A stretch of DNA of 32,000 bases. It comes from Pyrodictium abyssi (GTDB lineage: Archaea > Thermoproteota > Thermoprotei_A > Sulfolobales > Pyrodictiaceae). The notes below the pieces were generated by a model. That model did no database searches, was not told the DNA's origin, and saw only the letters and a program-made list of their open reading frames with translations. Within the stretch, counting starts at the first letter, position 1. Each line of letters opens with the position of its first letter. Positions 2,686 through 32,000 of the stretch are shown one piece after another. The position numbers and the translations under genes were made by a program. The DNA lies in the NCBI RefSeq assembly GCF_036323395.1, contig NZ_AP028907.1:556218-588217 (forward strand), read 5' to 3'.

Positions 2686-2888
2686 GCCCTTCTGGACACC
2701 TCTTCTGCTAGCTCGATGGCTTCCTCCATGGACAGCTTTGACTCCATTGCTATTATCTCTAGGAGGAGGAGCCGCCTGGCGGCCTCGGCGAGCTTCTCTG
2801 GCTCTACGCCTCGGCGCCTAGCGATCTCGACGACACTACGGGGCAGCGGCACGCTAACGGTTACAACGTGTTGTCCTCTTCTAGTCAA
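2655..2888 (-). CDS. Antitoxin partner of the PIN_3 toxin (intact copy)
   Basis: 77 aa, directly upstream of and overlapping the PIN gene. An N-terminal beta-strand-like VTVSVPLPRSVVEIARRRG is followed by helices. Confidence 0.6.
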   Translation of the reverse strand: MTRRGQHVVTVSVPLPRSVVEIARRRGVEPEKLAEAARRLLLLEIIAMESKLSMEEAIELAEEVSRRAWERIKETQQ

Positions 2889-3026
2889 AGTGAGCCACCC
2901 CTATACGGGCTAGAGGACGGCTCCCTAAATTAGCGTGGGCCTCTGGCTTATACCGGGCTTCTCGGGAGGGCTTGAGGTTATTCAGAGGCCCTTCGGCTTC
3001 CCCTGTGGCGGGGGCTGTCCCGGGCC

Positions 3027-4028
3027 TTGGCTGGTGGTAGGCTGTGTATCGAAGAGAGCCTTGTCACGCTGCTTCAGCCGATCTACCCCCGGCATACTAA
3101 CCGGTATGGTACGCTGCATGGTGGGTGGCTTGCTGGCTGGATGCTTGAGGCCGGCGGCATGGCGTCTATGAGGGCTTCGCGGGGCTACACGGTGCTCGGG
3201 GCTATGGACTACCTGTTCATCCTTAGCCCGGGCAGGGTGGGCGAGAACCTCCACGTCTACGCCTGGGTCGTGGGCTCTACCCGGCGTACACTGGATGTGC
3301 TCGTCTACGCGGAGGCGCGGCCCCTGGGCGGGGGCGAGGCGCGGCCGGTGAGCGTGAGCCTCCAGACCTACGTCGCTGTAGACGAGGGCGTGAGGCCGCG
3401 CGAGCACGGGGTGGAGGTCCAGCCGTGTAGCCTCGAGTCGGAGCCGCTAGTGGAGGTCCACCGGTACTGGCTCGAGGCGCGGAGGCCGCTGCTGGAGCAG
3501 AGGAGGCGGATAGCCGGGTCCACGGCGCCGCTCGACGCCGTGTACCGGAGGACTAGCTACTTCTTCGTCTCGCCGGAGGACACTTTCACGATACCCACGG
3601 TGATGGATGCCTCCCGGCTCTTCTACCAGATAGACCAGATGGCGGCTGTCCCGGCCATAGAGTTTACGGGCGCGGCTATGGTGACGGCTGGCTTCGACGC
3701 GGTGGTGTTCGCCTCGCCGGCCAGGGTCGGGGACCTGGTGAAGCTCGAGGCGGGGATAACCGGGGCGGGGAGGAGCAGCGTAGAGGTAGCGGTCCGTGTG
3801 GCTGCGCGCAACCCCCAGGCCGAGGACGTGGAGCGCACCGTGGCGCTGCTCTACGCGACAATGGTCGCGGTCGACGAGGAGGGCAGGCCCCGGCCGCTCC
3901 CACGCCGCCCGGTGCTCAGCGAGGAGAGGCTACGCGGGTACCTGGAGAGGCGCCGGCTCCGCGATGAGAGGCGCCGCGTAGCCCAGAGGATAGTGGAGCA
4001 CGCTAGGCTGCTCGCCAGCGGGCGCTGA
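3027..4028 (+). CDS. Acyl-CoA thioesterase/hydrolase, double hot-dog fold
   Basis: 333 aa. PRHTNRYGTLHGGWLAGWMLEAGGMA is the classic 4HBT/Acot motif, and a second hot-dog repeat covers about aa 190-290. The TTG start is uncertain. The stop lies 3 nt before the panE ATG. Confidence 0.8.
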   Translation: MAGGRLCIEESLVTLLQPIYPRHTNRYGTLHGGWLAGWMLEAGGMASMRASRGYTVLGAMDYLFILSPGRVGENLHVYAWVVGSTRRTLDVLVYAEARPLGGGEARPVSVSLQTYVAVDEGVRPREHGVEVQPCSLESEPLVEVHRYWLEARRPLLEQRRRIAGSTAPLDAVYRRTSYFFVSPEDTFTIPTVMDASRLFYQIDQMAAVPAIEFTGAAMVTAGFDAVVFASPARVGDLVKLEAGITGAGRSSVEVAVRVAARNPQAEDVERTVALLYATMVAVDEEGRPRPLPRRPVLSEERLRGYLERRRLRDERRRVAQRIVEHARLLASGR

Positions 4029-28774: not shown

Positions 28775-29055
28775 GTGGCAAAGAAGCGAGGCGCTCTAGC
28801 CATAGTTATCCCGGAGGACATTGTGGCTGCTGCAAAGGCCCCCGGGCAGGAGTTCGAGCGCGTAGCCAGGATAGAGCTTGCAGTGGCGCTGTACGCTCAC
28901 GGGATACCCGGCCTCGGCCAGGCTCGGAGGCTCGCAGGACTGTCGAAGCGGGCTTCCTCGAGGAGCTAGCCCGGAGAGGCATAGAGAGGCACTATACCGA
29001 GGAGGAGCTAGAGGATGACCTCCAGTTCGCCGAGGCGCAGGCTAGTAGTGTCTAA
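28775..29055 (+). pseudogene. UPF0175-family antitoxin-like protein with one frameshift; no adjacent toxin
   Basis: From GTG 28775 the sequence reads MAKKRGALAIVIPEDIV...ARIELAVALYAHGIPGLGQARRLAGLSKR. It then continues in the -1 frame as FLEELARRGIERHYTEEELEDDLQFAEAQASSV, with the joint in cgggcttcc at about 28945-28955. Together these match the UPF0175 pattern. Confidence 0.6.
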
Positions 29056-29093
29056 CAGTAGTCCTCTCATCCGCTTAGTCTCATTCACTAGGC

Positions 29094-29669
29094 CTAGCTG
29101 GCTCTGCCGCGCTGTACGCGGCCGCGGATTCTCCTAGCCCCGAGCACGGCGAGCACAGTGCCTACGAGCCACACTGCTTCGCCCGGCAGTCCGCCCCACG
29201 GGAGGAACCCGAGCGGTAGCCCAGCGAGCTGGAGAGCTACACCAGCCCGGACCATGCGGCCGCAGGGCTCGCTTCCCAGCCTCCAGAGACCCACAGCTAC
29301 TAGCATCGTGCCCACAAACCCTGCCACAATGCCGGCAAAGGCTAGCGCCATAGCCGCGAACACGAGCATGCTGGCGTAGCCGCCGAGGGACGACGCGCAG
29401 CCAGCAGAGGCTGCACGGCCAGCAGCCAAGGCGAGCCCCGCAATAGCTAGCGCCATCAGGGCTAGGCTAGCAGCTTCGAGCCTGGCGCCGGTCAGGCCTA
29501 CGCCGTAGCCCGGCCGGTAGAGCCTCAGCAAGCCAAACCCCTTCCAGAGAAGGTAGACCGGCAGGGAGTAGACCGCGAGATGCGCGAAGACCGCGATAAA
29601 GACCCCCACAGGCGGCGGGCCCTCAGCAGCCCGGGGAGCCCTATCCAGCACCGCTACAGGATAGTCCAC
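29094..29669 (-). CDS. Hypothetical polytopic membrane protein
   Basis: 191 aa with a GTG start and 5-6 hydrophobic helices. Ala/Gly/Leu richness makes a GC-driven artefact possible. Confidence 0.45.
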   Translation of the reverse strand: MDYPVAVLDRAPRAAEGPPPVGVFIAVFAHLAVYSLPVYLLWKGFGLLRLYRPGYGVGLTGARLEAASLALMALAIAGLALAAGRAASAGCASSLGGYASMLVFAAMALAFAGIVAGFVGTMLVAVGLWRLGSEPCGRMVRAGVALQLAGLPLGFLPWGGLPGEAVWLVGTVLAVLGARRIRGRVQRGRAS

Positions 29670-29755
29670 GAAGACAATAGCTCTATTACGAACATCTTGT
29701 AGAACGCCCTGTCATCCTCGCCCGGCACGACTATAAGAACGCGCTTCACCGTCAT
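29654..29755 (-). pseudogene. 33-aa remnant resembling the N-terminus of a Toprim/DUF4276/DUF3226-type partner protein
   Basis: Unlisted ORF with ATG 29755, preceded by GGGAGGAA 8 nt upstream and 20 nt after the ATPase stop. Reads MTVKRVLIVVPGEDDRAFYKMFVIELLSSWTIL; the hhhhh-(E/P)G-E/D-D-xxF pattern resembles Toprim motif 1. It then terminates. Confidence 0.35.
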
Positions 29756-29775
29756 TGCGGGCGTTCCTCCCGCCC

Positions 29776-31148
29776 CTAGGCTCTGCGGAGGTCTAGGGCC
29801 GGCTCTTCCACCATGCCTAGCGCGTCCTCGCCCTCCCAGGAGCCCTTCACCGTGACCCTGCCGCGTACGAGCTGGAGGTGCTTGACCACAGTTCCCCCAG
29901 TACCCCGGCCTCCCTTGCCGCGTGGAGGAGGGCCTTCAGCATCTCTATGCTCTGCGTTGCTACGAGCACCTGGTTCCCCCTCAGCCACTATGCTGGCTAC
30001 GAGCCCCGCAACAGCCTCGAGGCCGTCAGGGTGCACAAAGGCCTCCGGAGTATCCACCAGGGCCAGGGAGCCACGCGGCGAAGCAGCATAGAGGAGTCCC
30101 AGGAGCACAGCAGCACGCTGCCCATCACTCAGCCGGTAGACGCTTATCCTCCTGCCACAGGTGCTCCTCGCGTGCAGCTCGCGGCCAATTAGCTCAAAGC
30201 CACTAAACCGGGGTATGAAGGCCCGCAGGAGCCGCACTGCGTCCCGCTCCCTGGGCAGCCCGCGCTGCTTGACACTGTCGTAGTAGAGGGACTCGAACAT
30301 GAACGGGCGATACGCGAAACCCGGGTGAAACACAAGGATACTCTTCCTTGTATCTAATGGTGTACTCCTCTCGAAGCGACGGCTTGCCGCCATAGAGTGT
30401 ATAAGCCAAGTACAGATTGCCCTTATAGAGTCGAATGTATGAGGGAAGTGCCCCTCTAGCACCAAAACGGGGAGACGTTGAAAGCTCGTATTCCTCTCCT
30501 AGCACGTCATGTAGCATATGCAGCAGGTCGCTCAACCTGATCCTTATACTCAGAGAACCATATGGAAACTCATTCATTATTTCTTCTATGCCTTGATAGA
30601 ATGACTCAATCACACGAAGCGTATCCTTCAATGTTAAGCTATAGGCTTCCGAATCGACTATTCTTCCAACAATATGGGGTCTTATACGCGTAAACATATG
30701 ATCCAGCGACAGAGGGTCGGCAGCCTTAACCAGTATCGCTTACACGTTCTATGCCATAATCTTCGCCATTCCCGCTCTCTTCTGATTCTCTAACGAGACC
30801 GGCTAAGAACGATGGAATCGCAGTCTGTTGCCTCATAGTCCTTATCATTGCAAGCGCCGGTGCTATGCTCTCCCCATGCCCTGTCAGTGCAACGGTATAG
30901 CCTAGAGCCTCTAGAAGCGACGTCTTACCAGACGCATTGCGGCCCACTATGATGGTGAAGCGCTGGAGACCGTTGACATCTACCTCTAGGCCCTCCAGCT
31001 CGCCTTCGCTAATGTACGGTAGATATGCCTTAACCTCTTCTATATGTGTCACAGCCACCTCTACCCCAAAGACACGACTATACCGAGAAGCACAATAAAT
31101 GGTCCTATGCCGAGAAAAGCCGGTACCTCGGTTAGGCTCTATCCGCAT
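29776..31148 (-). pseudogene. ABC-type / AAA_21-like ATPase (abortive-infection or OLD/PARIS AriA-like class) with at least 4 frameshifts
   Basis: Five pieces. (1) VTHIEEVKAYLPYISEGELEGLEVDVNGLQRFTIIVGRNASGKTSLLEAL, carrying Walker A; the likely real start is GTG about 31052-31058. (2) Frame 2, AILVKAADPLSLDHMFTRIRP...REEYTIRYKEE. (3) Frame 3, ILVFHPGF...YRLSDGQRAAVLLGLL (signature-like) ...SLALVDTPEAFVHP (Walker B). (4) Out of frame, NQVLVATQSIEMLKALLHAAREAGVLGE (H-loop region). (5) Back in frame, TVVKHLQLVRGRVTVKGSWEGEDAL. The last two shifts sit in C5 runs at 29976-29980 and 29894-29898. Confidence 0.7.
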
Positions 31149-31361
31149 TAGGTTGTATATAGCGAGAATCCCAGTATCTCAGCAAAGACTAGACTACATC
31201 CTACTTCAACGCTGAGAAGACCGGGCTACAGAGCCACCAGCTACAACAGAATACAGCAAGCACACTATAATGCCACATAGCAACGATAGCAAATTAATAG
31301 CAAATTACTATGTTTATCCTAGTGCCCCTTCTGCCGGGTAGTCCCGATTCTTGCCTATGCT

Positions 31362-32000
31362 CTAGGCTTGGCGGGCTATAATGCTTCTTATGAGCTGCTG
31401 GTAGCGTCTCGCGGCAGGTGTGTCGGCTAGGTCGAGCTTGTCTAGCGCCGCTCTAACGTCTATGCCGCAGTGGCGTTCTGCCGGGACGAGTACTGGTGTC
31501 CCGCCTCCCCCGGCGCAGGCTGCTAGGAAGAGGACTGGCTCGTACTTGGCGTAGTCGCGGGAGCAGCGGCTGCTGGGGCAGCGGCTGCATGCCTGCGGCG
31601 CCTCTGCCGGCTCGTAGCTGTACTTCTCCTCGAGCATCTCCCCTAGCACGTCCTCTACTGTGCCGCGGCAGGGGCTGCCGCTGCACCAGAACGATATGTA
31701 GCTGGTCCTCCGCGCCCCCTGGCTCACAACCGTTACCTCGAGGAGCGGGGGCGGCTGCGGGCCGCGCTTCAGCCTGGTCTCGACGGCTAGTCCTCGCCTC
31801 TTCGCGTGCCTCTCCAGCACCCTGATGACCTCTTGCACCCGCTTGTCGACGCCTGCGTCGGCGTCGATAATGCCTAGTATCGTTGCCCGGGAAGCAGCTA
31901 GCCCCACCGTCTGCCTCACCACGCCCGTCCATCCCCCGGCTAGCTCGGCCTCGGCGTCTACGCCAGCCTTGCCCGCGAGCCACTCGGCTAGAGCAGCGTC
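31362..32000 (-). CDS. Hypothetical Cys-rich protein, C-terminal part (gene open to the window edge)
   Basis: The reading frame is open upstream of the listed GTG 31922 to position 32000 (DAALAEWLAGKAGVDAEAELAGGWTG...). Contains ILGIIDADAG (a beta-strand plus DxD) and cysteine clusters FWCSGSPC and CSRCPSSRC. Confidence 0.5.
   Translation of the reverse strand, partial: DAALAEWLAGKAGVDAEAELAGGWTGVVRQTVGLAASRATILGIIDADAGVDKRVQEVIRVLERHAKRRGLAVETRLKRGPQPPPLLEVTVVSQGARRTSYISFWCSGSPCRGTVEDVLGEMLEEKYSYEPAEAPQACSRCPSSRCSRDYAKYEPVLFLAACAGGGGTPVLVPAERHCGIDVRAALDKLDLADTPAARRYQQLIRSIIARQA

Follow-up and report, generated by a model that had tools for sequence, protein, structure and literature searches.

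PARIS systems protect against viruses when triggered by an anti-restriction protein. They consist of an ABC ATPase gene (AriA) followed by a separate gene for a Toprim nuclease of the DUF4435 family (AriB), with products of ~55 and ~35 kDa (PMC11464382, PMC9122126). The metal site of AriB is formed by the acids E26, D30, D88, E90 and E122, and the E26A substitution abolishes defence (PMC11464382). A lactococcal AriB has been linked by profile search to the protein PH0156 (PMC11381338). OLD nucleases also combine an ABC ATPase with a Toprim region, in classes 1–3 as parts of a single polypeptide (PMC10568477). Here we describe a locus of the hyperthermophilic archaeon Pyrodictium abyssi that belongs in this company. 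The window analysed is a stretch of 32,000 nucleotides (nt), positions 556218–588217 of the one-contig genome (2.22 Mb, GC content 0.59), and its positions 29654–31361 carry, on the minus strand, a decayed two-gene module within a defence-gene island. We consider it very probable that this module is the dead remnant of a gene pair in which an AAA_21-type ABC ATPase of ~430 amino acids (aa) stood ~20 nt ahead of a ~270-aa partner with the Toprim fold of PH0156 and the OLD nucleases, and that it lies behind a distantly related module that is still intact.

The original prediction, made from the letters of the window, listed a frame-broken ATPase gene, a 33-aa open reading frame (ORF), a protein leaving the window and an AT-rich patch, and interpreted them as an inactivated cassette. 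All four observations are borne out by the sequence, and the cassette is indeed inactivated, by four frame changes in the ATPase gene and by deletion of the partner gene past codon 23. The decayed cassette itself is an ordinary loss of an accessory gene. Its value is that of a pointer to two rare pairs of ATPase and PH0156-fold genes in hyperthermophilic Thermoproteota.

The broken ATPase gene and its truncated partner

Six-frame reading places the ATPase gene at 31058–29776 of the minus strand, in five pieces (A to E) separated by four frame changes, in line with the minimum of four predicted originally. Piece A (30740–31058, frame 1) encodes the N-terminus, with a GTG start at 31058 or 31052, and the Walker A motif GRNASGKTS. 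It is 58–60% identical to the relatives P0001, P0002, P0003 and L050, its P-loop matches Pfam AAA_23, AAA_21 and AAA_15, and its frame is lost somewhere within 30735–30790. Piece B (30341–30739, frame 2) corresponds to the variable insert that separates the Walker A and signature motifs; its LYLAY motif can be aligned, and its identity to the relatives (22–28%) is at the level that the relatives show among themselves in this region. Piece C (~30351–29989, frame 0; host-like part 29989–30333) contains VFHPGF, the signature LSDGQR(AAV) and the Walker B motif LALVDTPE, and is 81% identical to P0002. Piece D (29892–29987, frame 1) reads NQVLVATQS at the H-loop position. Piece E (29779–29889, frame 0, stop codon at 29776–29778) encodes the C-terminus, which ends in DLRRA, and is 75–84% identical to P0001, P0002 and L050. 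The motifs named in the original prediction (GRNASGKTS, LSDGQRAAV, LALVDTPE and VLVATQS) were thus all located, in pieces A, C, C and D, respectively. Both tblastn and a frameshift-aware alignment to an intact relative show the five pieces to be colinear with relatives of 430–434 aa. Taken singly, pieces A (25.7 bits) and C (17 bits) score under the AAA_21 cut-off of 27 bits, as is to be expected of fragments. A tandem duplication was considered at the break between A and B, where IERVSD is followed by ILVKAAD in the next frame, and was rejected: the two stretches, compared by eye, are unlike at the DNA level.

Piece D is flanked by a compensating pair of indels, an extra base at 29976 and a missing base at 29891/29892. 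The frameshift-aware alignment locates the two shifts near 29976 (+1) and 29890 (–1). Metagenome relatives have one base fewer at 29976 in three runs and one base more at 29891/29892 in four runs. Since the metagenome contigs carry neither shift, both indels are specific to the P. abyssi genome.

The 33-aa ORF (29654–29755, minus strand) lies 20 nt past the ATPase stop codon. Its residues 1–23 (29755–29687) are identical at 22 of 23 positions to the N-terminus of P0033, the partner of the closest intact relative; the contigs of P0033 and P0002 are equal in size. Homology stops at 29686/29685, and the last 10 codons are unrelated. Contigs from three vent-metagenome studies match the window down to 29686 and then run on in an open partner frame, continuing KSIAAVYGLN. 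Hence, the partner gene of P. abyssi was cut after codon 23, and the ORF described originally as resembling a Toprim motif turns out to be the first 23 codons of a conserved Toprim-fold partner.

Intact cassettes do exist in related genomes, among them those of L050 (ATPase 1489–2775, partner 2794–3612) and L010. The gene following the family ATPase is the ~270-aa partner in all 11 distinct loci for which downstream sequence is available. The two are separate ORFs, the ATPase first, and either lie 4–25 nt apart or share 4 nt. At its N-terminus the partner has a hydrophobic strand followed by VPGxxDRAFYK. The gene call of P0001 is cut off by the end of its contig and reads through into the partner start. 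The proposed pairing of an ATPase with a small Toprim protein therefore stands as a pairing, in intact loci and by the fold matches given below; the word small does not fit an intact partner of this length.

A low-GC segment within the pseudogene

The GC profile falls to 0.37–0.53 between ~30300 and 31350. The low-GC patch (30334–31361) takes in a leader (31059–31361) and two-thirds of the pseudogene, on its 5′ side. In the leader and in pieces A and B the GC content is 0.46–0.52 and the GC content at third codon positions (GC3) 0.42–0.49; pieces C–E have a GC of 0.63–0.69 and a GC3 of 0.72–0.87, the latter like that of the flanking host genes. The left edge of the patch, 30333/30334, coincides with a frame change and with the loss, at the 3′ end of piece B before the junction with piece C, of ~14 codons that are kept in all relatives. 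Contigs of four vent or subsurface metagenome studies match 29686–30333 with ~4–5% differences (~95% identity). At 30333 two of them continue with unlike, GC-rich sequence and two end; in the low-GC part the metagenome match is limited to the Walker A stretch (30898–31025, 86–92%). We read 30333/30334 as the junction of two diverged gene copies, the 5′ part and the leader coming from a lower-GC source. The AT-rich stretch noted originally is thus real, both in GC and in GC3, but it does not mark a whole acquired cassette: only the leader and the 5′ two-thirds of the gene are affected, and the mosaic junction lies inside the gene.

Searches for a donor of the low-GC part returned none: piece B has no relatives in a word-index search of longer proteins, among 30 relatives or in the 351 genomes of the class, and the low-GC DNA has no match in plasmids or phages. 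Repeats around the patch are short pairs at chance level, without flanking direct or terminal inverted repeats. Rfam gave no match in 29000–32000, and a tRNA gene was found neither in the window nor in the 15 kb beyond it. The low-GC leader contains a perfect tandem duplication of the 11-mer ATAGCAAATTA at 31286–31307.

Two other accounts of the pseudogene bear on different parts of this picture, and some features of the locus do tell against ours. The single-base indels are deduced from the assembly and from comparison with relatives, and they could be assembly or sequencing errors in a gene that is intact in the organism. The indel at 29976 falls in a C5 run (29976–29980), the other lies beside TT and C5 runs, no available sequencing run contains more than 9% of the sampled words of the genome, and no RNA run is listed. 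Still, two of the lesions are structural: ~14 codons are gone at an out-of-frame junction that coincides with the GC3 step, and ~250 partner codons are missing, which is beyond any single-base error. The adjoining genes are open, and the genome is 99.98% complete. We therefore regard a purely technical origin of the frame changes as extremely improbable. The mosaic, for its part, is drawn from composition and a breakpoint at the DNA level, not from phylogeny. The 5′ and 3′ parts of the protein are about equally distant from P0001–P0003, and the nearest relative remains the same in each region, so that phylogeny lends the mosaic no support. Together with the missing donor lineage, this would suit native heterogeneity, or relaxed drift of a dead gene, with 30333 being only an internal deletion. 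That account is possible but unlikely: GC3 drops from 0.72–0.87 to 0.42–0.49 within ~50 nt and stays low through the whole leader, as far as the upstream gene's stop codon; the ~95% identical relatives continue past 30333 with GC-rich, unlike sequence; and the intact L050 gene, from the same taxonomic family, is compositionally even (GC 0.55–0.58).

Overall, the module shows four lesions. The frame of the ATPase gene is lost once towards its 5′ end; at 30333/30334 a low-GC 5′ segment, which we read as that of a different family member, joins the host-like 3′ segment out of frame; a compensating +1/–1 pair lies at 29976 and 29892; and a deletion removed the partner after codon 23 and probably took the start of the next gene with it.

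Intact relatives, partner fold and predicted role

A search with piece C among 1.84 billion representative proteins returned only 31 proteins at E ≤ 1e–3 (27 at E ≤ 1e–10), mostly 410–470 aa long and 41–81% identical, the best being P0002 (430 aa) and P0003 (434 aa). Intact relatives pass the cut-off of Pfam AAA_21 (PF13304), with 52.9 bits for P0002 and 72.5 bits for L010, and their best PADLOC model is AriA (E-value 6e–15 to 1.5e–24). An identity as RecF, RecN, SMC or Rad50 was rejected, for matches to these are local to the P-loop and low (SMC_N 21–26 bits versus a cut-off of 40, recF 25–30 versus 172). The ATPases form a small family of their own. Its Walker B motif reads hhhhDTPE in 21 of 23 members, versus DE in ABC ATPases, and its H-loop position reads ATQS, with Q in place of the canonical His. 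Fused ATPase-Toprim forms were absent from a search for longer proteins that used piece B as sole query.

The family is rare and patchy: besides P. abyssi, ten of the 351 class genomes, from seven taxonomic families, have a full-length-type match. The carriers are metagenome-assembled genomes (MAGs) whose labels read Desulfurococcales or Thermoproteales; no member of the family turned up on viral contigs. Decay recurs, in three of ~11 genomes (P. abyssi, G228 and G138). The G228 pair (locus L052, contig C94) has an in-frame TGA in the ATPase gene and a 93-aa partner that is divergent beyond the first ~38 aa; in G138 (locus L053, contig C66) a TAA splits the ATPase into 118 and 326 aa, and the 219-aa partner is without its last helices. 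These two pairs are damaged independently of each other. The partner at locus L045 is short too (196 aa).

An AlphaFold model of the partner, built on 16 sequences, has high confidence (mean predicted local distance difference test score, pLDDT, 92; predicted template modelling score, pTM, 0.91). Foldseek found one clear match, PH0156 of Pyrococcus horikoshii (2P62, E-value 4.5e–7). In an exhaustive structural search the same protein gave Z 18.2, with a root-mean-square deviation of 2.8 Å over 226 of 241 residues. The C-terminal region of the Burkholderia OLD protein BpOLD (6nk8_B) followed with Z 9.1 over 176 aa and the Thermus protein TsOLD (6p74_A) with Z 8.0 over 135 aa, then GajA of Gabija (Z 6.7), AriB in the AriA-AriB complex (8v46_D, Z 5.9) and retron Eco2 (Z 5.0). 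Matches under Z ~8 are weak one by one, yet all are to the same kind of protein. PH0156, which we take to belong with Pfam DUF3226, is also the best structural match of the 224-aa protein encoded by the upstream cassette (Z 10.3; see below). Going by the models, the relation of both partners to PH0156/DUF3226 and to the Toprim regions of OLD nucleases is one of fold. At the sequence level neither partner matches PH0156, and profiles of the two partner families gave no match among PDB sequences. The DUF3226 cut-off of 27 bits is not reached either, the partner family having no match and the 224-aa protein 19.4 bits. No significant similarity came out when the partner profile was compared with the 224-aa protein or with the profile of its family, so the two partner families are related by fold only. 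Since PH0156 is without known function, the match names a fold and not a mechanism. Membership in DUF4276 or DUF4435, suggested originally, failed for both partners (Pfam scan, E ≤ 1). The two ORFs flanking the dead ATPase are both Toprim-like at the fold level.

Residues invariant in the partner are V11, P12, G13, D16, R17, F19, Y20, D37, D39, D121, E123 and Q174, with Pro12 of the VPGxxD motif conserved in 16 of 16 sequences. Judged by spacing, P12-G-x-x-D16 would correspond to E26...D30 of AriB, and D121-x-E123 to D88-x-E90. On this match the partner family keeps the later acids and has a Pro at the position of the essential Glu.

Among described systems, PARIS is close in architecture: the ATPase gene precedes a separate Toprim-fold gene, product sizes are similar (~430 and ~270 aa versus ~55 and ~35 kDa), AriA is the best PADLOC model of the ATPase, and the GxxD and DxE motifs of the partner are spaced as around D30 and D88/E90 in AriB. 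However, the partner shows neither DUF4435 (PF14491) at E ≤ 1 nor a PADLOC match to AriB, so that the likeness to AriB is at the level of fold; an invariant Pro stands in place of Glu26; the ATPase has DTPE rather than DE in Walker B and a Q in the H-loop; and the hosts are hyperthermophilic archaea, with no member found on viral contigs. OLD nucleases (P2 Old, TsOLD 6P74, BpOLD 6NK8, GajA) share the combination of ABC ATPase and Toprim, and the fold match covers their Toprim and C-terminal helical regions. In contrast to OLD classes 1–3, each of the two parts here has a gene of its own. The cassettes contain no helicase or retron partner, and the decayed family departs from the canonical form of the first Toprim motif, which the upstream 224-aa protein has.

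By analogy with AriA/AriB and OLD, the ATPase of intact copies would, as an oligomer, act as a sensor and keep the Toprim-fold partner bound and under control. A signal derived from a virus would alter the state of the ATPase, and the freed partner would, as the effector, act on nucleic acid. We lean slightly towards a role of the intact family in virus defence, predicted from gene architecture and neighbourhood; that the intact pair cleaves tRNA or DNA is a guess we would make with less assurance than the defence role itself.

Several results pull the other way. The partner has no match in Pfam at E ≤ 1 (three partners scanned), in PADLOC or in PHROG; its model has no meaningful match in BFVD, and no viral relative was found by structure or sequence. 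The equivalence of Pro12 and AriB Glu26 is read from motif spacing. DTPE, ATQS and VPGxxD replace the canonical catalytic Glu, His and Glu throughout the family, which makes a PARIS-like nuclease mechanism uncertain. Either other residues take over, or the pair signals by binding and not by catalysis. The chemistry may accordingly differ, with ATP binding in place of fast hydrolysis and another acidic cluster (D16, D37/D39, D121/E123, E192/D193). The lack of a defence-library match and the non-canonical residues would also fit a housekeeping or DNA-repair ATPase-nuclease pair, or a selfish addiction module of toxin-antitoxin (TA) type. The island is rich in TA genes, and for some OLD-type proteins a role in defence is not proven (PMC10568477). 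We nevertheless consider such a role improbable. A family present in ~3% of class genomes, sparse and patchy over seven taxonomic families, speaks against housekeeping; it decays recurrently, it sits in a variable island beside an McrBC-like pair, and in L010 a different pair of ATPase and small protein adjoins the family pair.

Returning to the defence role, we propose only tentatively that the intact relatives are a distinct archaeal two-gene immune module, PARIS-like, with both catalytic Glu replaced (DTPE, VPGxxD). Such a module might work as an ATP-binding switch with a re-wired metal site or with a non-nucleolytic effector, and the mosaic might reflect allele swapping. PH0156, a structural-genomics protein, gains a genomic context through these pairs, namely a split OLD/PARIS-like module in an island of conflict genes. 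To our knowledge, tests of archaeal defence systems are few, and a PARIS-like pair that is stable to heat and departs from the canonical catalytic residues would lend itself to finding the essentials of ATPase-Toprim immunity. The recurrent decay and the mosaic junction illustrate a quick turnover of such modules.

The upstream cassette and the surrounding island

The protein leaving the window, described originally as Cys-rich with an ILGIIDADAG motif and as a neighbour of the dead ATPase, is encoded at 31362–32036 of the minus strand (212 codons up to 32000). Extension of the window, as had been proposed, completed the 224-aa ORF with 36 more bases and recovered an intact ATPase gene, ATPase1. 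The 224-aa protein proves to be the partner of ATPase1 and not of the dead ATPase. Its first and second motifs are canonical (ILVEGxxD and IIDADAG), it has a Cys-rich insert, and its score against Pfam DUF3226 (PF11536) corresponds to an E-value of 1e–3. It has five homologues besides itself, one of which, P0041, carries a precomputed PF11536 match. The structural model of the 224-aa protein (pLDDT 81, least confident around residues 178–189) matches TsOLD (Z 7.7) and BpOLD (Z 7.5) after PH0156. In the six sequences of its family C11, C118, C123, C150, C153, C158, C174 and H189-C190 are invariant, which suggests one or two metal-binding clusters inserted in a Toprim-fold protein.

ATPase1 lies outside the window on the minus strand, 22 nt upstream of the 224-aa ORF. 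Its ORF spans 32059–33441 and the protein likely has ~375 aa (~33186–32059). It passes the cut-offs of AAA_21 (60 bits) and AAA_15 (44 bits) and has only a remote likeness to the dead ATPase (tblastn E-values 0.66 and 8.2). The family of the 224-aa protein occurs in 13 of the 351 class genomes, with a ~375-aa ATPase directly upstream in seven of eight loci inspected. As the 224-aa protein pairs with ATPase1, the locus holds two tandem cassettes of ATPase and Toprim-fold genes from different families, the first intact and the second dead. AbiL, MAD3-MAD4 of MADS and PDC-M38, all ATPase-nuclease pairs, are further systems with some likeness, in that ATPase1 and piece A score on the PADLOC models AbiLi, mad3 and PDC-M38A and the 224-aa protein gives a faint match to PDC-M38B (E-value 0.077). 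However, the ATPases owe most of their score to the P-loop and the signature/Walker B region, and no partner model matches at a meaningful level.

A comparable tandem in L010, a Desulfurococcales MAG, indicates that tandem cassettes of an ATPase and a small protein recur: directly before its family pair, another AAA_15/AAA_21 ATPase (334 aa) is followed by a 158-aa protein (L010:3403–4887, plus strand). The 158-aa protein starts with MILVECKPDE, contains GLVDHDPG and has no Pfam or PADLOC match.

Downstream of the dead module, a gene for a DUF973-like membrane protein (191 aa; Pfam DUF973 E-value 7.8e–5, under the cut-off) occupies 29094–29669 of the minus strand, and the 33-aa ORF overlaps its GTG start (29669). 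The homologue in G002, a genome of the same genus, has 240 aa, and the DNA match to G002 ends at window position 29619. Given the length of 191 versus 240 aa, the gene has probably lost its 5′ end, in the same deletion that removed the partner; that deletion may have made the GTG at 29669 a makeshift start.

Beyond ATPase1 there follow, in order, the remnant of a DNA methyltransferase gene, an AAA_5 ATPase with a 456-aa partner (an McrBC-like pair), a PIN protein and a Panacea-domain pair. At the same locus, G002 has ~3.9 kb between the DUF973 homologue and the methyltransferase gene, with PIN genes and a membrane protein and no cassettes. The locus is a variable island of conflict genes. The methyltransferase remnant (L009:2155–2487, minus strand, ~33937–34269 in window numbering) is an ORF of 110 aa whose match is confined to the C-terminal part of a 374-aa G002 gene with an SPPF motif (L074, 5822–6946), of which it retains the last ~90 codons. 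The PIN-domain protein is encoded at L009:8403–8861 (plus strand), and the SocA/Panacea-domain protein, followed by a 296-aa protein, at L009:9358–11007 (plus strand).

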